IMG/VR virus record: IMGVR_UViG_3300021957_000018 | Reading direction: 5' to 3' (one strand) | Length of the DNA stretch: 64,000 nt | Origin: an uncultured virus (IMG/VR IMGVR_UViG_3300021957_000018) | Lineage: Duplodnaviria > Heunggongvirae > Uroviricota > Caudoviricetes | Shown: positions 834 to 15,753 of the stretch, in pieces | Layout: every line of letters begins with the position of its first letter | How positions within the stretch are numbered: the first letter of the stretch is position 1 | Position numbers and translations under genes: made by a program | Notes under the pieces: generated by a model | The model's input: the letters and a program-made list of their open reading frames with translations, nothing else | What the model was told of the DNA's origin: nothing | The model's database searches: none

Positions 834-3656
834 TTACACTGTATAAGTTTTAATTTTTCCTGACGCTGCTAATTTTTTTGATTGTGCTAATTCTGCATTA
901 CCTTCAGTACCCCGTCCCCAAGAAAAGTGGAAATGTACACCAGTTGCTTTTACAGTCATTCTTTTATATTCATCTTTAAATCTAATTGAGCCTGAAGAAG
1001 AACCTGCTGCAAATCCTTGTACTATGGCTAATACTTTCTTATAATTGCTGACTGAGTAAGGAACAATCGTAAAGTCTAGTGCTCTACCGGACTTATGTCT
1101 ACTCGTATACTCTGTAATATTTTGGTGGAACCTATCATTTCCTGAGGTAAACCTTAATTTAATTCCAGGTGCTTCAGATTTAACTGTGTTAATTAAAGCA
1201 GTACCTATTTTTAAAGTGTCAGAAGTTATATCTCCTCCGTTCGCTAATTCAGTTCCTTTTTCAGAAAAGCCAGCTGATTTAATTACTGCTCTTAGTTGAT
1301 CTGCGTTCGGTGTTTCACCGGTCTCAATAACCACTGGGTCATTATACCCTGGTGGTTCTGGTTGTTCAGTCAAATCTACTTGTGAATTTACATCTACAGC
1401 AACATCTCTAACAGGTAACATAAACATATTAGCTTTTAAGTCTACATTCCACCTATTAGTTGAATCTATTTTATGTGAAACGCCAGTAATTACGAATCCA
1501 ACTCTTGCTTTATATCTATGTGGCAGTATTTCATCCGTTATGCTAAAAGCTTCTCCTATTTTTAATCCTGCAAGTCCCTGCATAGTTATATTTATTTCAA
1601 TAGGAAGTAGTATGTTGGTTGAAACTGGTTTTCCTGCATTTCTGCTTTTAAGTTGTAGCATCTTAAGGCAAAATTGCATTGCCTCTCTATGAGAAGCTGC
1701 TATTGCGGTAAAATTACTAGCATCATTAGTTTTTAATGTAGCGTAGCTGTAATATGCCTTAGCAATGTCAATTTTATTTAATTCTCGTGTTTCTGCATTT
1801 TTTAAACTGTCTTTTGAGAAACCTTTACTATCTGTTGTTTCCTTCTTTTTAGTGGTAGACCATCTGTCAACAGCGCCGTTATTAAACTGTATTAAATTAT
1901 CCTGTCCGTTTTCTCCGGCTGCAGCTGAAATAGCTAGCATTGATGCTAGGTCTCCTGAAATTTTGCTGGTCACACCGTATGATGTTACTTGGGATCCTAA
2001 TCCTATTAAGTCAATTACCGGAAGCTTCTTATCTACCTCAACTGGGTTGTATAGGTTCCTATCTATGACGTACCATTCATTTCTACTTTTATCTAAATTT
2101 AGATCTAAATTATTTATGCCTCCTAGTGTATTACTTACATCCGTTAGGACTGTTTTAATTAATTGAAATATCGAGGTTTCATTTTTAGAAGTTTTTCTAC
2201 TACTCAATGCTGATCTCTGGATGCTCTGTAGATAAGCTAAGTTAATAAGTATATTTAAAGGAGCTTCTTCTTTAAGGTCTTTAGCCTCGTTTAGTTCTAG
2301 AGGTATAGCAGCATTGGACTTATACCCGTACCCTGTATACTCTTTAACATTCGGCATACTACCTTCTTTAAACGTTATTGCTCCTTTTCTGTAGGGTATC
2401 CCACATATGTATGGATCTCCTGATATATGTCCAGGGAATGTAATGTACTTTTGCCTTTCTACATTTAGGTCAAACTTAGTTCCGTTTGCACCAGAATCTT
2501 CTCTTTCTAATACTTGAGTATTAATAATGTAGAGAAGGTCTCTTAGTGTAATAAAATATTGACAGTCTGTGCTATTTTCCTCAGCGTCAGTTGATGATAG
2601 TGCTATGCCTGATTTATATACTTTTATGTTGTTACCTTTAGGGTAAAGTTTTTTAAGGTATTCGTCAAGTTTAACAGAGTTTGTTAAAGCTTTAAATATA
2701 TCCAATAGTAGATCATTATCGTCCTTTTTTGCCTTACTGGATGATTCTGTTGATTCTCCTTCTGCGTATCCTTTGTGACTTCCGGTGGATTGACTTCCAG
2801 TGTAAACCAGAGACTTAATAGATTCCAGTACTTCACCTTTTCCCATTACCTTAATCGTACAATCGTAACTTCCATCCTGTGCATAATCCCATCCGAAATT
2901 TATGACTTTCCCGATCATCGCATCGTAGTTATTCCCAGATTTTCTTTTTTTACCGTCAACGTCTTTAGTTAATTCACTTAATGATTTTGTTGCTTTAATA
3001 AAATCTGTAGTGATTGAACCTATATCATTTTCTAATTCACCGTAGTCATTTAGGTAAATACTATTGCCCCATTCCACTAACATTGTAAAACCAGGTTTAA
3101 AGTACAACTTTTCTATTACATCTAATTGCTCGCGTGACCATGCTTTGATATTTATTACTGCTTCTCTGAGTGTACCGTACTGGCTTTTTGATACTATGGA
3201 GAAATCTGTTATACCCATCATAGGTACGTATCCTCCTACTTCGCTAAATTCATATGAACTCCTTGTAGGTACCTCTGCAGTTCTACTTATATCTAAACCA
3301 GTTCTCCTTTGTTCTTGTAATTTTCCGTCAGTTGCTTTATTATATACTGTTCCTCCGGATAGTATATTTTGCGATGCTAATACACTGTCTTTATTATTTC
3401 CTTCGCTTATATATTCTCTTAATGCATCTTTAACTGCTGGGCTTCTTTGTGAAGCTATAATGCTTTTTATATACTCTTCTTCAGATGCAGGTAAGCTGTT
3501 TACTCCTGAAACTAATCTAATATATGCGCTTTGGTTATTAATAATGGAACTCCTTAATACATCTTGTCGTCCATTCTCATCTGTAAGTAGCATTTTACGG
3601 TACTTCAGCTGGTACTGTACGTCTATATTTAATGGTACACCGAATGTTTTTGACAT
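834..3656 (-). CDS. Baseplate hub-like protein with C-terminal Zn peptidoglycan peptidase-like domain
   Basis: 940 aa, downstream of the tape measure and LysM genes. The C-terminus has SRHKSGRALD...HFH, an HxxxxxxD...HxH (M15/LAS-type) pattern. Confidence 0.6.
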   Translation of the reverse strand: MSKTFGVPLNIDVQYQLKYRKMLLTDENGRQDVLRSSIINNQSAYIRLVSGVNSLPASEEEYIKSIIASQRSPAVKDALREYISEGNNKDSVLASQNILSGGTVYNKATDGKLQEQRRTGLDISRTAEVPTRSSYEFSEVGGYVPMMGITDFSIVSKSQYGTLREAVINIKAWSREQLDVIEKLYFKPGFTMLVEWGNSIYLNDYGELENDIGSITTDFIKATKSLSELTKDVDGKKRKSGNNYDAMIGKVINFGWDYAQDGSYDCTIKVMGKGEVLESIKSLVYTGSQSTGSHKGYAEGESTESSSKAKKDDNDLLLDIFKALTNSVKLDEYLKKLYPKGNNIKVYKSGIALSSTDAEENSTDCQYFITLRDLLYIINTQVLEREDSGANGTKFDLNVERQKYITFPGHISGDPYICGIPYRKGAITFKEGSMPNVKEYTGYGYKSNAAIPLELNEAKDLKEEAPLNILINLAYLQSIQRSALSSRKTSKNETSIFQLIKTVLTDVSNTLGGINNLDLNLDKSRNEWYVIDRNLYNPVEVDKKLPVIDLIGLGSQVTSYGVTSKISGDLASMLAISAAAGENGQDNLIQFNNGAVDRWSTTKKKETTDSKGFSKDSLKNAETRELNKIDIAKAYYSYATLKTNDASNFTAIAASHREAMQFCLKMLQLKSRNAGKPVSTNILLPIEINITMQGLAGLKIGEAFSITDEILPHRYKARVGFVITGVSHKIDSTNRWNVDLKANMFMLPVRDVAVDVNSQVDLTEQPEPPGYNDPVVIETGETPNADQLRAVIKSAGFSEKGTELANGGDITSDTLKIGTALINTVKSEAPGIKLRFTSGNDRFHQNITEYTSRHKSGRALDFTIVPYSVSNYKKVLAIVQGFAAGSSSGSIRFKDEYKRMTVKATGVHFHFSWGRGTEGNAELAQSKKLAASGKIKTYTV

Positions 3657-3958
3657 TATCTATTTTGATTAAGTTCTCTGTACTCGTTTTTTATTGCTTG
3701 AATATTAGAGGGGATTCTTAACTGTTTACCGGGTTCTACTGTTAGTGAATCTTTTTTACTATTATTAACAGATGCTATAACCCACCATAGTTGTGGATCT
3801 TTATAGTACTCCAACGCTAATGTATCGTACCTATCTCCTGCTGTAGCTATTACGTATATATCATTAAAAGATGGTTTAATAACTGGGAATATTACATTCC
3901 TTCTATATCTAATACCATTTTTAGTTTGCTTTAATAGTATATCTCTATATCTGTTCAT
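3656..3958 (-). CDS. LysM-like baseplate protein
   Basis: GDRYDTLALEYYKDPQLWWVIASVN...GKQLRIP is the LysM-like pattern of contractile-tail baseplate proteins. Confidence 0.75.
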   Translation of the reverse strand: MNRYRDILLKQTKNGIRYRRNVIFPVIKPSFNDIYVIATAGDRYDTLALEYYKDPQLWWVIASVNNSKKDSLTVEPGKQLRIPSNIQAIKNEYRELNQNR

Positions 3959-5519
3959 CTTCTTCTGGGATTGTTGTTACCACGACTTCGTCTAATTCTA
4001 TTTCCGGTTTGGCAAGTCTATTCTTTCTACCTATAAACTTATTACCAAACTGTGGTGCTATAGTATGAGTAGGTGAAAAGGTAATACTTACATCTAATAC
4101 GGTTGGTACTTCAGGTATATCCTCTAACCCTCTATCTAAGTCGGTTAGACGTTCAAAATTACCATCTTCGTTTGTACCGTAGGTTGATGTTTGCCAAGTG
4201 TAATCTGTGTTCCAGTCAAAGGTAACGGATTCTATTACCCCAGGTTCCTGTACTAGGTACCCTCCTATAGTAATTGCTACAAAATTTCCTCTCATAAAGT
4301 TATTTGTTGAATATGTAGGAGCAGTTGTACCTGCAAGGAGGTTAAGTTTAGCGTACAATGGTTTTAATTCATCTACTGAACTAGCTGCAACTTTGAACCC
4401 GAATGTAATACTTCGGCTAAATCCTTGATATGATCTAAAATCTTCTGCACGGCCTAAATACTTAAAAGAGCTCCAATCTGCTGAGTAAGAGTCGTTGAAA
4501 TTATCTAGATAAGCCCTGAAAGGGAGTATTGTTACATCGGGAACTTCATCTTGAGTTGATTGAGGTGTTATTACTTTAAAATTAAAATCAATTATATCTT
4601 TAAAAGCTTCTTTTGTTTTTTCTTCTATTGCTTGTGTATCTAATCCGTCTACTATTCCTATAGACCCTCTCTTTGGAAACTTAGCAGTGATCCTATCTTT
4701 TGGCCTTAATGTATAGGAGTCCCCGTTTTTGTCTTCTGGTGACTGTACTTCAGTAGGAGTTAAGCTTATCTGCTCAAATCCTTGAGCAACTCTTGTATAT
4801 ATTCCCTGTGCTCTTGTATTCTGACTAAGTTCTACTGCTTTAAACCCTATAGGTTCAGATCCAACTCCGGATGCATAATACTCTTTATCAAGATCTTCTG
4901 GTTTTGTTGGAGTTGCAGCGTCTAGTGCCTCCTGTCTCTTCTGTTTTCTGGATTTCTTAGCTTGTTCTGAGGTAGTTTCGCCGGCATCGGTTATGGAGAT
5001 ATTAGCTGTCTGTGTACCGAATGTATCAAACTTCGTTAGAAGTGCACCTCGTTCTTCCTGTCTTTCTCTCCCTTCTATCTTAGTGTTTATTACTTCTCCG
5101 TTAAGAGCTGATCTATGACCTTGAACTTTGGGTAAATACCCTCTCTTGCCCATAAAACCTTCAACAAAATGTGTACCTGTTCCATTAACGGGAACTTGAG
5201 CAATCATAGAAGCAATTGATTTAGCTGAGGACCATCCCCCGGATAGTATCCTACCTATACCGGTTTTTCCTGCAGATTTAGATTGGATGTTTTTTTCAAC
5301 TACACTTAATGCTGTTTGATTTGCTATGTGTTTTAAACCAGGTCCGGTAGTTAGTAGTGTTGTGATTCTCTTTAAATCATCGGTTCTACGAGTTACTTCC
5401 ATAGCAAGACTATTAGGACTAGGTGCGTCATTTATATCCTTTGTTACTAAAGGAGGTTCTACACCAAAGTCACCATACTTAAGATCTCTTAAGTTAGTTT
5501 GTAGGTCTATTAACGGCAT
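3945..5519 (-). CDS. Probable baseplate/tail-tube initiator protein
   Basis: 524 aa. Tube-fold-like C-terminal half (YLGRAEDFRSYQGFSRSITFGF...). Lies between the tape measure and LysM genes. Confidence 0.5.
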   Translation of the reverse strand: MPLIDLQTNLRDLKYGDFGVEPPLVTKDINDAPSPNSLAMEVTRRTDDLKRITTLLTTGPGLKHIANQTALSVVEKNIQSKSAGKTGIGRILSGGWSSAKSIASMIAQVPVNGTGTHFVEGFMGKRGYLPKVQGHRSALNGEVINTKIEGRERQEERGALLTKFDTFGTQTANISITDAGETTSEQAKKSRKQKRQEALDAATPTKPEDLDKEYYASGVGSEPIGFKAVELSQNTRAQGIYTRVAQGFEQISLTPTEVQSPEDKNGDSYTLRPKDRITAKFPKRGSIGIVDGLDTQAIEEKTKEAFKDIIDFNFKVITPQSTQDEVPDVTILPFRAYLDNFNDSYSADWSSFKYLGRAEDFRSYQGFSRSITFGFKVAASSVDELKPLYAKLNLLAGTTAPTYSTNNFMRGNFVAITIGGYLVQEPGVIESVTFDWNTDYTWQTSTYGTNEDGNFERLTDLDRGLEDIPEVPTVLDVSITFSPTHTIAPQFGNKFIGRKNRLAKPEIELDEVVVTTIPEEDEQI

Positions 5520-9781: not shown

Positions 9782-11527
9782 TTATCCGTTAAAAGTTGCG
9801 CCTGTTGGTTCAACTGTAAAGTCTAGCACAATAAATTCTGCTGTTCTTGCTGGCTGAATAAATATCTGACCAATTAACTGATTCCTGTCTACTACGTCTG
9901 CTGTGTTATTCGTATCGTCCATTACAACTCTAAAAGCATAAAGACCTTGTCTTTGTACTACTGATTCTAAATAAGGATTAACGATTGATAAGAATTTGTT
10001 TCTAGTAGCTACTGTGTTCTGTTCGAATACTAAGTTTCTAGCTTGATCTCCTAAGAATTTCTTAAGTTCAATTAACAATCTTCTAACGTTCACTCTATCT
10101 AAAGCTGATGCTTTAGTTTGTAATGTCTTTTGACCAAATACTGCAATACCTTGTCCAGGGAAAGTAGCGATTGGATTAACTTTTCCATCATACAATAAGT
10201 CTCTTTGACCTCTTGTCAATTTCTGTTCTGCTTGAATGATTCCTACTACTCCACCTCTTACTAGTCCTGCTGGTGCGTACCATGGTGCTGAACTATTATC
10301 TGTGAATGCATATACTCCCGGTATTGCTACTGAAGCTGGTGACCATACGTTTCTACCTGTTGCTGATTTTACTTGTACCCAAGGCCAGTAAGCAGCTGCA
10401 TAAGAACTATTTAATCCTGTTGCTGTTGAAGTTACATCAGCTACTCCAGAACCATAGTTATCTAAATCTACTACTGCGATACAATCTCCTCTTTGCTCTG
10501 CTAAAGTAATAATACTGTCTAATGCGCTTCCTTGTGCTGCATTGCTGTATATAAGACCTGGTGCTGATACTATATTAAAGATGTATTCATCTTTATTGCT
10601 TAGTATTGATATTGCTGTAGAATAATCTGATCCATTTACTCCTTGTGAATCTGTATTTGAAATAGATCCAAAGTAGTTAGCAGAACCAGGTGCTATGTTT
10701 CCTGTTGCTCCGTGGAATGAACCTGATTCATTTATCGGTAATGACCCTGTATATTCGTCGCTCCTAACTGTTATACCGTCATTTAATAAGTACCCTGGTA
10801 GTGGACTGTTAACAGCAGATACATAAATATAATTTGATTTATTAATGTAGTCTCCAAAAGTTTTAACATAGTCTTTAGACCCGTCTGTTGCTGGAGCTTT
10901 ATATTGTGTACCAATTTTAGACTCTATGTAATTAGATGATTGTGGATCTAATGATACATTGTTAAATGTTTCTAATACCACCTTAGCATTATGACTATCT
11001 GATCCTTTTCTGATTAGTAAGGTAAATGTACCTTTTTTCTTATCTACATTAGTTACTTCCCACCTGATGTTGTCTTCTGATCCGCTTGTTAAAACTCCTC
11101 CACTGTTTGTGATTTCGTCTCCTGCTGAACTTACTCCTGTTGAGGCGTTAAATAATGTACCTTTACCTAATGTCTTAAGAACAAAAGGTTGAGTATCAGC
11201 AGCGTCTGAAGAAGATACGTGTGTACTTGTAGCTGGAGCAAATGTTCCATTTACTACTCTAGTAACCAGCATAGTGTTACCTCCTTGTTGGAAGTAGTTC
11301 TTTACCGCTATCGATGTTAAAAATTCTTGATTAGTTGATGCTGAAATAAAAGTCTCTCCGAACTTTCTTTTGTACTCATTATAAGATGTAACAATAGTTG
11401 GTTCAAGAACAGGACCTTTTACGGTTGGGCCTAAAATAGCGGCGCCTGCTTCAACTGGAGCTGGATTGATGAAAGAGACATCATTCTCTCTTGCAAATAC
11501 ACCTGGGGAAATAATTGATTCTGCCAT
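9782..11527 (-). CDS. Contractile tail sheath protein (T4 gp18-like)
   Basis: SPGVFARE N-terminus plus PWYAPAGLVRG, GQKTLQ and RVNVRRL sheath motifs. Confidence 0.93.
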   Translation of the reverse strand: MAESIISPGVFARENDVSFINPAPVEAGAAILGPTVKGPVLEPTIVTSYNEYKRKFGETFISASTNQEFLTSIAVKNYFQQGGNTMLVTRVVNGTFAPATSTHVSSSDAADTQPFVLKTLGKGTLFNASTGVSSAGDEITNSGGVLTSGSEDNIRWEVTNVDKKKGTFTLLIRKGSDSHNAKVVLETFNNVSLDPQSSNYIESKIGTQYKAPATDGSKDYVKTFGDYINKSNYIYVSAVNSPLPGYLLNDGITVRSDEYTGSLPINESGSFHGATGNIAPGSANYFGSISNTDSQGVNGSDYSTAISILSNKDEYIFNIVSAPGLIYSNAAQGSALDSIITLAEQRGDCIAVVDLDNYGSGVADVTSTATGLNSSYAAAYWPWVQVKSATGRNVWSPASVAIPGVYAFTDNSSAPWYAPAGLVRGGVVGIIQAEQKLTRGQRDLLYDGKVNPIATFPGQGIAVFGQKTLQTKASALDRVNVRRLLIELKKFLGDQARNLVFEQNTVATRNKFLSIVNPYLESVVQRQGLYAFRVVMDDTNNTADVVDRNQLIGQIFIQPARTAEFIVLDFTVEPTGATFNG

Positions 11528-11555
11528 GTCTGGTCTATTTTGTTTTTTAGTTTAT

Positions 11556-11563
11556 TATAAATA
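11556..11563 (-). promoter_or_regulatory. Putative late promoter TATTTATA
   Basis: Octamer upstream of the sheath gene. A second copy lies at 11613-11620. Confidence 0.6.
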
Positions 11564-11620
11564 TCGTTTAGGAATGTAAAACAGATAATGTATTTTGTTT
11601 TAACTTCTCTTATATAAATA

Positions 11621-11646
11621 GGAAAGGAGGATCTAAACCCTCCTCT
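11621..11646 (-). terminator. Hairpin, probable terminator
   Basis: AGGAGGGU-UUAG-AUCCUCCU then UUCC, after the 98-aa gene. Confidence 0.55.
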
Positions 11647-11669
11647 CTATTCAAGTATGTTTGAAATAT

Positions 11670-11966
11670 TTACTTTACTTCTTCAACAACTTCATCTTCA
11701 GCTCCTTTTTCCTCTGCAGGTGCAGGGATAAATTCACCTTCTTTAAGGTCGATTGACCCTACTCCATATGCATCTTCTAATTCCTTAACAACCTCTTGTT
11801 CAGAAGTTCTTAATTCCTCTAGAAACTGCTCTGCGCTTTCTTTTCTTTGCTCTAGGTTAATTTCAGCTAATGAAATTTGTCCTAACTCTTGAATTAGTGC
11901 AGCGTTTTTGTTCTGCAGATCTTGTAACTTTCCAAGCTCTTCTTTACTCAGTTTTGTGTTTGCCAT
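11670..11966 (-). CDS. Small acidic coiled-coil protein, possible fibre/tail assembly chaperone
   Basis: 98 aa with heptad pattern and YGVGSIDLKEGEF. Function inferred from position only. Confidence 0.55.
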   Translation of the reverse strand: MANTKLSKEELGKLQDLQNKNAALIQELGQISLAEINLEQRKESAEQFLEELRTSEQEVVKELEDAYGVGSIDLKEGEFIPAPAEEKGAEDEVVEEVK

Positions 11967-12066
11967 TTTCTTTTTAATTTAAAACTTTAATTTAATCGAT
12001 TAATTATATATTAATATAAGAATAAATAGTATACGAAACAACTATTATTCTAAATACTTTTATTTT

Positions 12067-12348
12067 TGTGTTACCCAGTAGCGGCTATGTTTCAAAACGT
12101 TCGTTAGAACGAGAATCCGCAAGGTGCTCCCCACATTTGTTATCGCAGCTTTTTTAATTACTACTTCTATATATCACTATATAGGTCAGACTATATCTTC
12201 AATCTTTCGATTGCCGGACGCTCGTGGGTCTATTATTGTTGGGACTCAAGACCTAGTCGTTGCACCTTCTGCAAAACTTAAACCCTTTGCAGCTTGGCTC
12301 AGTGTTGTCTCATTGAGAGTTCCTCTGAATTCATCCAGTACGGGCATA
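12067..12348 (-). ncRNA. Stand-alone group I ribozyme core (IA-like architecture) plus short downstream exon-like segment
   Basis: P3 CUGGAUG(12338-12332)/CGUCCGG(12220-12214). P element AAUUCAGAGGAA, Q element CACUGAGCCAAG. P6a CUGCAAAG/UUUUGCAG. R element GGUGCAACGACUA. P7.1 GGUCU/AGACC. P8 CAAUC-GAAA-GAUUG. S element AAGAUAUAGUCU. P9 CUAUAUA-GUGA-UAUAUAG. Ends ...GAUAACAAAUG (probable omega-G at 12134). Confidence 0.9.
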
Positions 12349-12356
12349 TATAAATA
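12349..12356 (-). promoter_or_regulatory. Putative late promoter TATTTATA driving the ribozyme
   Basis: Same octamer as before the structural genes, 3 nt before the guide G at 12345. No minus-strand ORF follows it. Confidence 0.6.
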
Positions 12357-12371
12357 TCTCTTCTTTTTAAA

Positions 12372-13232
12372 TTAATCTACTTTAGCTTTAAATACCTGGA
12401 ACTCACTATATCTAATATTTCCGAAGTTTGCATCTCCATTAATACTATTTCTTGGACCTTCTCTATATACCCATTTACCGAAGTTAAATACCAGTATATA
12501 TAGTCCTGCTCCCCATGATGCATAATTGTAGTTGTTAACAAATAATGTTCTCAGTGATACATAATTAGTACTGCTAGTAAAGGCAGAAGAAGCATAATCT
12601 TCATATTCAACTATAGTCCCGCTTGAGTTTAGTTCTATCCTAAGTACCTGGTATGTTGCTCCATCTCCTAATTTCATGTTACTATGTAAGGAACCTCTAT
12701 AAGCATGTGGATCATTATCGGGATAATCGTAAGTAACAGGTCCATTACCAGACATCATAGGTTCACCTTCATCTGTATGAGTTATACTATTATTACGTGA
12801 GATATCAGTTGCTGCTGATTTAGATGCTATTAAGGTTGATTTTCTACTATTCTTATTGAGTAATTTTGTTAACTCTCTATAGGGTGTATTAGCAGCTAGA
12901 TACGCTTTTGTATATGGTATTCCAGCAGTTACTCCATATTCTGCTGCTTCATAACTGTCCGGTCTAAATAAAGCGTCTCCGTAATTAAAATTAATAGCAG
13001 CAAGTAAGAAGTTAAAATCATGATCATAACTTCGATAATCACCTAAACTATAACCGGATGGTCCTCGGGGACTTGATCTTATATTAGGATTAAGTCTATT
13101 TACTTCACCTAAAGTTCCTTGAGAGATTGCTCCAAGACTTACGTTAGTATAGCTTGTTGAACTACCGTAGTTGTTGTTTGCAAATTCTCTTCTTATTCCT
13201 AAAAGAGATATATTATTACTTGGTGCTGCCAT
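12372..13232 (-). CDS. Putative fibre-tip/adhesin protein
   Basis: 286 aa. N-terminus MAAPSNNISLLGIRREF resembles fibre-tip attachment peptides. Last gene of the fibre cluster. Confidence 0.45.
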   Translation of the reverse strand: MAAPSNNISLLGIRREFANNNYGSSTSYTNVSLGAISQGTLGEVNRLNPNIRSSPRGPSGYSLGDYRSYDHDFNFLLAAINFNYGDALFRPDSYEAAEYGVTAGIPYTKAYLAANTPYRELTKLLNKNSRKSTLIASKSAATDISRNNSITHTDEGEPMMSGNGPVTYDYPDNDPHAYRGSLHSNMKLGDGATYQVLRIELNSSGTIVEYEDYASSAFTSSTNYVSLRTLFVNNYNYASWGAGLYILVFNFGKWVYREGPRNSINGDANFGNIRYSEFQVFKAKVD

Positions 13233-13285
13233 CTACTTACTTTATATTATTGTAATATTATTTAATAAATATAGTATAACTTTAC

Positions 13286-14551
13286 CTATATTCCAAATCT
13301 GTTTTTGTATACGTTAAAATTTTGTTTAACTTGGTCGGCAGATAATACTCCATTATATACCTTACCTACGTACACTTGTCCGTTTAACCCGTAGGAGCCA
13401 CTTAGACCATGGTACTCAGCCCCTATTGTGATTTTGCCGGTATTTAGTACAACTGATGCTGTTTGACCTGTTGATATTGTTTCTTGTAATTCTCCGTTTA
13501 GGTAAATCGTAACAACGCCTGTTGATCTTTTCCAAGTACCTACCAAATGGTATTTCGTATCGTTATTTAATGTACCTGTTACCATTGCTACGTAGCTACT
13601 AGTTCCAAAACCCAACCATAACCCATATCTGTTTGAATTCTTGTAGGACATTAATTTAACACCTCTTTGGTGGTCTGTATCCGTACATATTACTGAAGTG
13701 TGAGGAGCACTTGAGGCTTCTTCATTAAAGACTGCTTCTAACGTAATACTATCAGTAATACCACAGTTAGTCGTAGTTTGAAAGTAGTCACCTGTTCCGT
13801 CTAAGTCTGGTTGCCCTGTTGAATCAAAAGAAACATTTGATACATCTATACTTGTTGTTCTTTTTAAGTCTATAAGAGATTGGGTTGATAAGCGTGTTGA
13901 ACCTGGTTGGATAGGAGGTATTACATTATTTCCGTATGTAACTTGTGGCAATGCCCACATAAAAAAACCTGTAAAAGAACCATTTGTTACTCCATTTTTA
14001 CGAGGATATAAAGGTATAAATCTAGTATTACCGTCAGAGGTAGCTTTTTTTGCTGTCACTTGCCAAGTACCTTTGTTGTTTAAATTATATTCACCTGGAA
14101 AACCGCTTACAAGAGACTCCCCTCCTGCTTCACCTTCTATTACTGCAGGAATTGAATCTAAATTGCAATCAGCGCTTGCGTATATCCAAGAAGACATTGT
14201 CATAGTAGCTCCGTTAGTACAAGCGATATCTCTTAGCATATATCCGTATGAGTTACTACCCCAACTACTACTTAGTGCTCCGCTCACGTGTTTGAATACT
14301 AATCCCAAATAAGTACCTATAGGGCCACTTACTCCAGGATGAGTGTATGTTGAATTTTCAGTCCACCTATTACCATCCCAATAATGCTTGGTATGAGTCC
14401 TAAGAGATTGAGTGTTTAACATACTATCCCATAAGTTTGCGCCTGGTTCGCCTTTATAAAACCTAGTTGAAGTGTTATTATCAGCTACACCGTATCCTGT
14501 ATCATATCCAAATACTAAACTATCTTTTATTAAATGAGGTCCTGTATACAT
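13286..14551 (-). CDS. LamG/concanavalin A-like lectin protein, paralogue A
   Basis: C-terminal LamG pattern (YHLVGTW...IYLNG...KVYNGVLSADQVKQNFN). Shares constant boxes with paralogues B and C. Confidence 0.75.
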   Translation of the reverse strand: MYTGPHLIKDSLVFGYDTGYGVADNNTSTRFYKGEPGANLWDSMLNTQSLRTHTKHYWDGNRWTENSTYTHPGVSGPIGTYLGLVFKHVSGALSSSWGSNSYGYMLRDIACTNGATMTMSSWIYASADCNLDSIPAVIEGEAGGESLVSGFPGEYNLNNKGTWQVTAKKATSDGNTRFIPLYPRKNGVTNGSFTGFFMWALPQVTYGNNVIPPIQPGSTRLSTQSLIDLKRTTSIDVSNVSFDSTGQPDLDGTGDYFQTTTNCGITDSITLEAVFNEEASSAPHTSVICTDTDHQRGVKLMSYKNSNRYGLWLGFGTSSYVAMVTGTLNNDTKYHLVGTWKRSTGVVTIYLNGELQETISTGQTASVVLNTGKITIGAEYHGLSGSYGLNGQVYVGKVYNGVLSADQVKQNFNVYKNRFGI

Positions 14552-15753
14552 TATATATTAAATCGGTTTTTGTATGCGTTAAAGTTTTGTTTTACTTCTT
14601 GTGCTGTAAGACCTGTGTCGTAAATTTTTGCTACAGCCATTAATCCTTCAAAGAAATACTGTCCACTAGTGCCACTAGCAAACGTTCCTATTCTAAAATC
14701 GTTATTCAACGTTAAGCTAGTTGTGTTTGTAGTACCAGTGCCAACACTTACTCCGTTGTGGTAAATTACCCAACTATTCCCATTTCTAGTTGCTACTATA
14801 TTATGCCAATTGTTTAAAGGCATGCTGAAATTACTGGACTGTACTTCAATATTACTATTACCTGTAACGACATGCACAGTATCTGGCGAAGCATGATAGT
14901 CAAATAGGAAGTATGCGCTAGTACCATTGGTATTTCCATCTCCCCTTGGATCCATTAAGTACATTCTAGAGTGGTTGTAACCTGTTGGGTATATCCAAAC
15001 TTCCATTGTTAAGCTTGCTCCTAAAAAAATATTGCTAGGCGAAGCAACTATTCTATCATCTGTTCCATCAAAATCAGGCTGTCCAATTGAATCAAAAGAT
15101 ACATTTGATACATCTATATTTGTTGTCTTTTTTAGGTCTATTAGTGATTGAGTGGATGATCTTGTTCCTAGGGAACCTATATATGGAGATAGTTGATTGC
15201 CAATTTCAAATTGTAAATCCTGTATTTTTAAATTTACTCCATTGCTATACTGGTACCCTTGTAGGTTAATATAAGAGGTTGTTGATGTTGTTGTAAAAGT
15301 TCTATAAGCCCTATACCATCCTCCTCCTAAATCAATCATATAACTAGTAGAAAATTTCCCTCCTTCTGTTATTTGAGAACCATTATGGTACTGTCTTACA
15401 TAAAACATATTTACGTGTGGGGTAGTCCCGCTATACTTAATAGTAGCACTAACCGTATACTCTGTACTGGCAGAGATATTGTTTATTGTAGAACTTGCAT
15501 AGAACTGTACTCCTCCTCCATTAGTTGTTATTAAATGTATACCTTGGTTACCTCTGTCTGTTGTATAGTAGGATGTAGAACCTGTCATTCCGGACCAATT
15601 ATTGAAGTATTTGGTCATATCGTTAGAGAGGTTACTAGTTGGTTTTCCTTGATAGTACCTAGAATTAGTAGCGGTGTTATTTACACCATATCCGGTATCG
15701 TATCCAAATACTAACCCATCTTTTTCTGTATTAGGTCCTCCTATGGTTGCCAT
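14551..15753 (-). CDS. LamG/concanavalin A-like lectin protein, paralogue B
   Basis: WHNIVATRNG...IYHNG...KIYDTGLTAQEVKQNFN, with a CBM-like N-terminal domain. Confidence 0.75.
   Translation of the reverse strand: MATIGGPNTEKDGLVFGYDTGYGVNNTATNSRYYQGKPTSNLSNDMTKYFNNWSGMTGSTSYYTTDRGNQGIHLITTNGGGVQFYASSTINNISASTEYTVSATIKYSGTTPHVNMFYVRQYHNGSQITEGGKFSTSYMIDLGGGWYRAYRTFTTTSTTSYINLQGYQYSNGVNLKIQDLQFEIGNQLSPYIGSLGTRSSTQSLIDLKKTTNIDVSNVSFDSIGQPDFDGTDDRIVASPSNIFLGASLTMEVWIYPTGYNHSRMYLMDPRGDGNTNGTSAYFLFDYHASPDTVHVVTGNSNIEVQSSNFSMPLNNWHNIVATRNGNSWVIYHNGVSVGTGTTNTTSLTLNNDFRIGTFASGTSGQYFFEGLMAVAKIYDTGLTAQEVKQNFNAYKNRFNI

Follow-up and report, generated by a model that had tools for sequence, protein, structure and literature searches.

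A probable naturally permuted group I ribozyme behind a tail-module gene of an uncultured tailed phage

We describe an RNA element in a 64,000-nucleotide (nt) stretch of DNA from an uncultured virus (IMG/VR record IMGVR_UViG_3300021957_000018; Duplodnaviria, Heunggongvirae, Uroviricota, Caudoviricetes), a stretch that was analysed as a whole and that we call the window. On its minus strand, in the 3' untranslated region of a gene that we call P0001, lies what is most probably a group I ribozyme whose natural genomic sequence is circularly permuted, giving a permuted intron-exon (PIE) arrangement; we put the probability of this reading at roughly 0.8. Read along the RNA, the guide comes first, followed by the P3-P9.1 core, the omega-G and a 59-nt 'exon'; behind the 5' splice site stand the nucleotides that once began the intron. 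The two splice sites are thus reversed on one strand, the 3' site (12132/12131) preceding the 5' site (12073/12072), which is the permuted order; the canonical order, in which a 5' exon, an intron and a 3' exon restore a host gene, is not found here. An initial annotation, made from the letters alone, had proposed such an arrangement, with a circle of 61 nt. The parts of the element and the gene in front of it are the following.

12372..13232 (minus strand): upstream gene P0001, a complete open reading frame (ORF) of 286 amino acids (aa), stop codon at 12374-12372
12351..12359 (minus strand): conserved A/U leader GAUAUUUAU before the guide, its core UAUUUAU present in 8/8 variants and in the immuto-type elements described below
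12341..12345 (minus strand): internal guide GCCCG, the 3' strand of P1, with 5/5 pairs formed in 8/8 sequences and a G12345.U12073 wobble
12167..12338 (minus strand): group I catalytic core P3-P9, from the RF00028 match and hand-drawn helices
12338-12332 with 12220-12214 (minus strand): P3
12258-12254 with 12193-12189 (minus strand): P7
12253-12249 with 12231-12227 (minus strand): P7.1, subgroup IA-like
12184-12167 (minus strand): P9, with a GUGA loop
12145..12164 (minus strand): P9.1 hairpin GUAG/CUGC with a 12-nt A-rich loop, 4/4 pairs in 8/8 sequences (one pair UA in six, UG in two)
12132..12144 (minus strand): 3' tail of the ribozyme, ending at the omega-G, G12132; contig ends and the RNA joint place the 3' splice site at 12132/12131
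12073..12131 (minus strand): 59-nt 'exon', excised as a ring to judge from the RNA joint 12131->12073; ends conserved, middle hairpin (12111-12098) hypervariable
12078..12082 (minus strand): 3' strand GCUAC of stem B, pairing weakly with GGAGC at 12130-12126
12073..12077 (minus strand): 5' strand of P1, UGGGU, with the 5' splice site between U12073 and A12072
12067..12070 (minus strand): 3' strand CACA of stem A, pairing with UGUG at 12135-12132 and clamping the 3' to the 5' splice site

A group I core behind an uninterrupted gene

The core is recognised by the Rfam family RF00028 (group I intron) at 12393-12167 on the minus strand, with 81.9 bits (E 2.8e-19; cut-off 50). This is the sole Rfam family at gathering score within the 64-kilobase (kb) window, in which the group II family gave no Rfam match; the relatives introduced below score 79.0-84.1 bits. 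In the Rfam alignment P3-P9 fit well, with a 31-nt insertion between P7 and P3' that is P7.1, typical of subgroup IA, and the P1 and P2 portions are forced, with many mismatches. A standard P1 or P2 within 12393-12346 was considered and rejected, the alignment there being ridden with mismatches and no partner ending in U.G being drawable; a leader/tail pairing, AUUU/AAAU, is possible but is lost in one relative (L010, judged by eye) and was likewise dropped. To judge from its sequence, the leader GAUAUUUAU is probably the 3' half of a former P1 loop. In the standard relatives L001 and L012 the tail is similar to that of the element, ...AAAUG(UG), whose G12132 is invariant in 8/8 sequences.

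The core starts directly behind the P0001 stop codon, on the minus strand. P0001 matched no Pfam or PHROG family; its six homologues (286-292 aa, 49-93% identity) span 100% of the protein, with the last residues of the C-terminus conserved. Since P0001 is complete up to this conserved C-terminus in 6/6 homologues, the ribozyme interrupts no gene. No homing endonuclease ORF was found in or beside the 214-nt core, and the only ORF of at least 40 aa that overlaps it is an 83-aa frame on the opposite strand. We also considered a coding role for the 61-nt stretch of the initial annotation, in which two of the three substitutions relative to L004/L005 are synonymous in one frame and a faint likeness to the P0001 C-terminus can be seen; it was rejected because relatives differ there by frame-breaking insertions and deletions.

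Guide and splice-site partner in eight variants

Protein- and pattern-based scans for relatives yielded nine contigs that encode a relative of P0001 at 48-98% identity (L004/L005, L006-L010, L013, identical with L018, and L014, identical with L019), giving eight distinct variants with the window included. The ribozyme sits right behind the P0001 stop codon in 10/10 loci (the window and the nine contigs), and no empty site was found among the P0001 relatives. While the upstream P0001 is constant, the downstream gene varies among the ten loci. From the guide to the last G the distance is 214 nt in 8/8 variants, with 205-214 of the 214 positions identical, and the segment behind the last G, the 'exon', ranges from 35 to 75 nt and is far less alike. 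All nine DNA-derived contigs are collinear with the window and show no 59-base-pair (bp) duplication.

The motifs that had been read from the single sequence are all present on the minus strand: GCCCGUA at 12345-12339, UACUGGGU at 12080-12073, the CGUUC-UAAC-GAACG hairpin at 12111-12098 and the GCGG/CCGC strands at 12120-12117 and 12084-12081. The segment is also GC-rich as claimed, its G+C fraction at 12050-12149 being 0.42, compared with 0.16-0.23 for the two counting intervals that follow downstream (11950-12099). The pairing proposed between the guide and UACUGGGU, of 7 bp with a bulged U, holds up in part: a 5-bp helix, GCCCN/N'GGGU, is conserved, but the longer form finds no support, its GUA/UAC extension being opposed by L009 and L013, which have A at 12341, and also by L010. 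At the 5' splice site 8/8 sequences keep the U.G wobble, and the RNA joint described below uses U12073. Within 150 nt behind the 3' splice site, 8/8 variants have a 5-nt guide partner ending in U; within 300 nt ahead of the guide, only 2/8 do, namely the window and L006, which is nearly identical to it. Homologues that had lost the downstream site were looked for, and the site was found kept and covarying in 8/8 variants. Judged by this comparison, the downstream guide partner is more than chance. As a separate observation, the pairing that the window offers at 12472-12462 resembles P1 as textbooks draw it, the splice site falling in mid-helix.

Covariation was counted over the eight sequences on a structure drawn by hand, with 13 helices and 64 pairs, where 96.3% of cells form standard pairs, compared with 31-42% when partners are slid by 1-3 columns. 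Position 5 of P1 is G.U in five sequences, A-U in two (L009, L013) and U-A in one (L010), and in L010 guide and variable partner are co-adapted. Stem A forms 4/4 pairs in 8/8, one pair being UA in seven and AU in one (a compensatory change, in L010) and one being UA in seven and UG in one (L013), which bears out the earlier suggestion that UGUG/CACA pairing brings the splice sites together. P7.1 carries a compensatory change as well (C-G in five, U-A in three of the eight). As structural elements the GCGG/CCGC pairing and the hairpin did not survive the comparison, their sequence being unconserved in L010, L013 and L014; the middle of the ring is swapped for unrelated hairpins with stable tetraloops in L007, L008/L009, L010, L013 and L014. 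Even where the neighbouring P0001 proteins of two phages share only 48-58% identity, their cores match at 96-100%, loops included; this near-identity speaks for recent spread, which fits selfishness or a selective sweep.

RNA contigs at the splice sites

Part of the stretch was found in 20 runs recorded as RNA, and in one guessed to be RNA. The four best runs (X1-X4), seawater metatranscriptomes of 2018 represented by Logan contigs, were aligned to positions 11600-13300. Contig cover is lacking at 12056-12112 in X1, X3 and X4 and over most of 11942-12055, which includes the 5' end of the downstream product.

The back-splice junction was searched for and found in one contig. Record 7 of X2 is an isolated contig of 89 letters (depth 4.6) that maps 12118->12073 and then 12131->12089, with 0 other letters in the listed piece. 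Its joint connects U12073 to G12131 and goes back 59 positions, and its length equals one 59-nt turn plus 30 letters. The contig word size is presumably 31, in which case an isolated circular path would be written as exactly one turn plus 30 letters; the record fits a covalent 59-nt ring.

At the other end of the reaction, record 3 of X1 (783 letters) and record 8 of X2 (204 letters) terminate exactly at 12132, record 16 of X3 has a joint at 12132, and the X4 contig stops at 12147, making G12132 an RNA stop or joint in 3/4 runs. As these contigs end at 12132 and not about 30 letters beyond, words spanning 12132/12131 are missing, and read-through RNA is therefore rare; known strain differences start at 12124 and hence do not explain a stop at 12132. 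These ends and the joint also settle two details of the initial annotation. Its first choice of omega-G, 12134, does not agree with them and its alternative, 12132, does; the ring of 61 nt gives way to the form 2 nt shorter, 59 nt, seen as the joint 12131->12073.

Two further features of the contigs deserve mention. Records 8 and 9 of X2 abut with a 2-nt hole at 12336-12337, at the start of P3, where X1 continues through; the hole might reflect sparse coverage, the end of an RNA or a stop of the reverse transcriptase. Record 16 of X3 (878 letters, depth 6.2) runs 12354->12132, continues with 41 unplaced letters and then runs 13300->12687. As the piece upstream stops exactly at the edge of the aligned stretch, its joint probably connects the omega-G to about 13341, a position 109 nt ahead of the P0001 start codon with only a 3-bp match to the guide region.

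Related introns and further lineages

Homologues of the core occur as introns of terminase genes in Vibrio and Pseudoalteromonas phages, and the terminase intron of Vibrio phage qdvp001 (L001; 90.6 bits in Rfam) serves as the standard form for comparison. Its P3-P9 are homologous to those of the element (76% identity over 88 nt), and the two have in common the P7.1 insertion, the lack of a real P2 and the tail ...AAAUG. In L001 the guide GUUUACGAG has its partner upstream, in the 5' exon CUCGUAGAU, and the terminase frame is restored by splicing; an A/U-rich P1 loop (CAUUUUAUUAAC) lies between the 5' splice site and the guide, similar though not identical to the leader of the element. The element differs in that the partner lies downstream of the omega-G, no frame is restored and the upstream exon strand is missing. 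Keeping the A/U segment and the tail and lacking the upstream exon strand is what would be expected of a permutation broken in L1, and the earlier proposal of a break in that loop fits the A/U-rich P1 loop of the qdvp001 intron. Apart from this, positions 1947-3764 of Pseudoalteromonas phage H101 (L002; KR534323.1) hold five group I matches of 30-80 bits within 1.8 kb, three of the five reaching at least the 50-bit gathering score, in an unusually dense cluster adjoined by an HNH homing endonuclease gene.

A second lineage repeats the layout. Flavobacterium phage vB_FspM_immuto_2-6A (MW353175.1; L020, 4990-5290) carries a group I core of 76.9 bits behind the stop codon of a 136-aa gene whose protein is unrelated to P0001 (E 3.7). 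Its guide GUCCU is followed, behind a tail ...AAAUGUG, by AGGAU/C 16 nt later and then by a rho-independent terminator. An IMG/VR relative (L038, 76.6 bits) has the guide GUCCA and the site UGGAU/C, so that GUCCU/AGGAU against GUCCA/UGGAU amounts to a compensatory change, at the same P1 position as in the window element. From their sequences, the immuto-type elements appear to share the permuted layout, with a predicted ring of about 16-19 nt. In the phage collection, the only relatives of the immuto element were found in the immuto strains themselves. The immuto record annotates part of the core (5061..5195) as a 44-aa 'hypothetical protein'.

A third permuted candidate, perhaps, is a single sequence from a 527-kb viral contig (L023, identical with L083/L158; IMGVR_UViG_3300005613_000001), with a core of 76.8 bits and the guide GGCCAC behind a stop codon. 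Downstream lies GUGGCU/AAAUGG, the site ending 28 nt behind the P9 hairpin, or 17 nt when counted from the presumed omega-G. A cut here, as predicted, would fall 3 nt ahead of the ATG that opens the next ORF and leave a nearly leaderless message; no relatives of this candidate were found. Among 57 distinct cores sharing one P6/P7 motif, nearly all are, by eye, ordinary introns in capsid, polymerase and tRNA genes.

Genomic neighbourhood

The neighbourhood is a myovirus tail module comprising P0003 and P0002 (both LamG-like), P0001, a 98-aa gene, the tail sheath and the tail tube; the tail sheath is 61.9% identical to its counterpart in Flavobacterium phage vB_FspM_immuto. P0002 (421 aa) and P0003 (400 aa), at 13286-15753 on the minus strand, are paralogues with similar N-termini and LamG/ConA-like domains at their C-termini (PF13385, E 6.8e-16 for P0002), and by their sequences are likely receptor-binding tail proteins. 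In L006, which is otherwise about 98% like the window, the gene before P0001 has a different 3' end. Downstream of the element, at 11670-11966 on the minus strand, lies the 98-aa gene, which is coiled-coil-like and is followed by an 11-bp terminator hairpin at 11647-11622 (minus strand). Its contig depth in the four RNA runs is 6-10 times that of P0001, contig depth being a poor measure, and it is probably a highly expressed unit of its own with its own promoter. A scan for sigma-70 promoters and terminators over 11500-13500 gave nothing informative near the element (five promoter-like sites against 8.5 expected). No tRNA or tmRNA was found in the window, and the nearest record (G001, a 22.6-kb fragment) gave no group I match.

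Discussion

Group I chemistry, applied to the permuted order, suggests how the element would work. The guide GCCCG pairs with the UGGGU that ends the 'exon', placing the U.G wobble at the cleavage site, and stem A (UGUG/CACA, 4 bp) joins the last four nucleotides of the ribozyme to nucleotides 3-6 past the 5' splice site. Stems A and B would stand in for P10 as one long hairpin with a 1-by-7 internal loop, of which the guide would capture the long strand (UGGGUAA). Free guanosine or GTP would then attack at 12073/12072 and end up on the 5' end of the downstream RNA, after which the 3'-OH of U12073 would attack at 12132/12131 and close the 59-nt ring. The P0001 mRNA so released would carry the folded ribozyme at its 3' end and terminate in a free omega-G. 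Within the ring, stem B would, in a weak prediction, close a 6-nt loop carrying the ligation junction.

What the reaction is for can be argued from what varies. We give about even odds to the view that the useful product is the processed end itself, an mRNA with a ribozyme at its 3' end, split from the downstream RNA and bearing a free, reactive omega-G. Whether the small ring is a by-product that makes the cut irreversible is likewise an evenly balanced matter; that it is a by-product is suggested by the hypervariability of its middle and by the predicted size of the immuto-lineage ring, only about 16-19 nt. A role in cis for the upstream message is favoured because the element is tied to the upstream gene in 10/10 loci while the downstream gene differs, and also because the 98-aa gene, at 6-10 times the depth of P0001, probably has its own promoter. 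A bolder extension, which we consider doubtful, is that back-splicing arms the ribozyme and the freed omega-G attacks far upstream, closing the P0001 message together with the ribozyme into a ring of about 1.2 kb. Such a ring or concatemer, with the whole P0001 ORF in it, would be a phage mRNA that circularises itself and withstands exonucleases, again a possibility to which we attach low probability. Hints in this direction are record 16 of X3, the tie to the upstream gene in 10/10 loci and an immuto lineage in which the element is followed only by a terminator. In immuto, the guide complement AGGAU was sought just before the upstream gene and is not there.

Several points weigh against a permuted ribozyme or limit what is said of it. 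Within the single sequence the evidence is no better than chance, NGGGU occurring 10 times in 3.9 kb of the minus strand; the local fold of the 3' domain has a z of -0.31 against shuffles, and the folding energy of this domain is not better than that of shuffles in 6/6 sequences (z -1.64 to +0.28). The covariation is thin, with eight related sequences and three pairs changed on both sides, a number that 6 of 500 shuffles equal. Stem B has 72.5% of its cells paired, with one pair mismatched in 7/8 and no compensatory change, and no P10 can be drawn between the 5' flank of the guide and the start of the 'exon'. On the RNA side the evidence consists of assembled contigs from RNA libraries, not raw reads; the back-splice junction rests on one contig of depth 4.6 in 1/4 runs, and X1-X4, which carry four study codes and are of similar size, may belong to one campaign. 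The biological role that we assign to the element is drawn only from sequence and contig patterns.

These points have to be set against what the alternatives would predict. An ordinary, unpermuted group I intron would have its 5' splice site upstream, at 13387/13386 in UACGGGU/U or at 12469/12468 in AUGGGU/A, and the 59-61 nt behind the core would then form a peripheral P9.x extension or belong to the beginning of exon 2. Such sites exist: a perfect 7-nt guide complement, UACGGGU, lies at 13393-13387 (minus strand) inside the 3' end of P0002 and is kept as UAUGGGU, still pairing with their guides, in L007-L009; an 11-bp complement, AUGGGUAUAUA to UAUAUGCCCGU, lies at 12472-12462 (minus strand) inside the P0001 coding region; and phage IA introns often have P9.1/P9.2 extensions, as L001 does. 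However, the former is absent from L006, L010 and L018 (the contig of L013) and the latter is confined to the window and L006, being lost in the other 6/8 variants. P0001 and P0002 are complete without splicing, the proposed exon 2 keeps no frame (its segments, 35-75 nt in length, differ among the variants by indels of 1-24 nt), and the observed RNA joint runs from 12073 to 12131, not from an upstream exon to 12131. We regard both forms of this explanation as highly improbable, noting that UACGGGU at 13393-13387 could be a cryptic upstream splice or circularisation site, though not the X3 joint. Very unlikely, too, is a decaying remnant of a mobile intron in a spacer, with a chance match of guide and site and a joint due to assembly, template switching or DNA duplication. 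That NGGGU is common (10 in 3.9 kb), that the junction is found in a single low-depth contig and that the fold energies are unremarkable would all suit such a remnant; yet a core of 214 nt in 8/8, identical at 205-214 of 214 positions and with a compensatory change in P7.1, is not decay. The joint moreover falls exactly at the U.G-paired U and right after the conserved G, two further runs stop or join there, nine DNA contigs show no duplication, and the independent immuto-type lineage repeats the layout with covariation of its own.

Other explanations accept the layout and reaction and differ about their use. The ring itself may be functional, as a decoy, sponge, signal or packaged RNA, which we think unlikely. 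Rings resist exonucleases, a ring segment is present in 8/8 variants, and the depth of the ring in environmental RNA is similar to that of the ribozyme (4.6 against 8); but only the parts that the reaction needs are conserved (the ends, P1 and stem B), while the middle consists of unrelated hairpins and the length ranges from 35 to 75 nt. The immuto-type rings, too, would be only about 16-19 nt, and the same by-product argument has been made for circularly permuted group II ribozymes (PMC8637638). The specific ring functions that had been speculated on are thus not supported, given the hypervariable middle. The element could instead be a selfish passenger, a permuted intron passed between related phages by recombination and, thanks to its place behind a stop codon, tolerated with no benefit to the phage, an explanation we treat as a serious minority view, below even odds by a wide measure. 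A core 96-100% identical next to P0001 proteins at 48-58% looks like the recent horizontal exchange typical of mobile introns. On the other hand, there is no homing endonuclease ORF, guide and partner are co-adapted in L010, the element occupies the same gene end in 10/10 loci with no empty site among the P0001 relatives, and a sweep across lineages can equally mean benefit.

The natural permuted ribozyme that we favour has counterparts in the laboratory and in nature. In the engineered PIE, a 3' intron part, 3' splice site, exon, 5' splice site and 5' intron part follow one another, and the products are a circular exon and two linear pieces. The element has the same order and chemistry, with the difference that it is natural and encoded in permuted form in a phage genome. 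Its break lies in the P1 loop, so that nearly the whole ribozyme is one upstream piece; the downstream 'half' is a few nucleotides plus stem A, and the exon a non-coding hairpin of 35-75 nt. Another group I derivative that is no longer an intron is GIR1, the lariat-capping ribozyme of the Didymium twin-ribozyme introns, which processes an mRNA end and has a rearranged core that forms a 3-nt lariat by branching; the element, in contrast, retains a canonical core, P1, the U.G wobble and the omega-G. Full-text searches of the literature, with subscription journals outside the scope, turned up no phage or bacterial group I ribozyme reported to be permuted in the genome.

Chi et al. 2019 (PMC6545197) describe the ND5-717 intron of corallimorpharian mitochondria, which back-splices from a permuted precursor via a circular exon RNA and which its authors call the first reported natural case. 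There, a canonical intron of 18-19 kb in ND5 is permuted only at the transcript level, through the circular genome, and the ring, of 2.1 kb, is an intermediate carrying coding exons (PMC6545197). Compared with ND5-717, the element has its DNA itself permuted, joins nothing coding and resides in a phage. The circularly permuted (CP) group II ribozymes of bacteria, as described by Roth et al. 2021 (PMC8637638), have reversed interior splice sites and predicted rings of 15-86 nt, with poorly conserved ring sequence, no mobility ORF, extra stapling helices and a function that is not known. They are chromosomal or plasmid-borne and use a branch-point adenosine to give a branched product (PMC8637638), whereas the element would use guanosine attack, yield two linear products and sit in a phage structural operon; the likeness is one of analogy, not of membership in a class defined by the group II domains D5-D6-D1-D4.

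Permuted group I introns are a laboratory workhorse for making circular RNA, and the only natural case we found in print is the transcript-level oddity of coral mitochondria (PMC6545197). The element offers a compact, 214-nt, cold-water and protein-free ring-maker with a naturally tolerant insert site, and Flavobacterium phage immuto is a cultured system in which to ask what such ribozymes are for. There is also a caution for annotation in that group I matches behind stop codons are not necessarily dead introns, the immuto core being annotated in part as a 'hypothetical protein'. The environmental RNA, as contigs, points to a reaction that runs nearly to completion. If confirmed, the element would be to group I what the circularly permuted ribozymes are to group II, and both classes of self-splicing RNA would have been turned from introns into devices for processing RNA or making rings.

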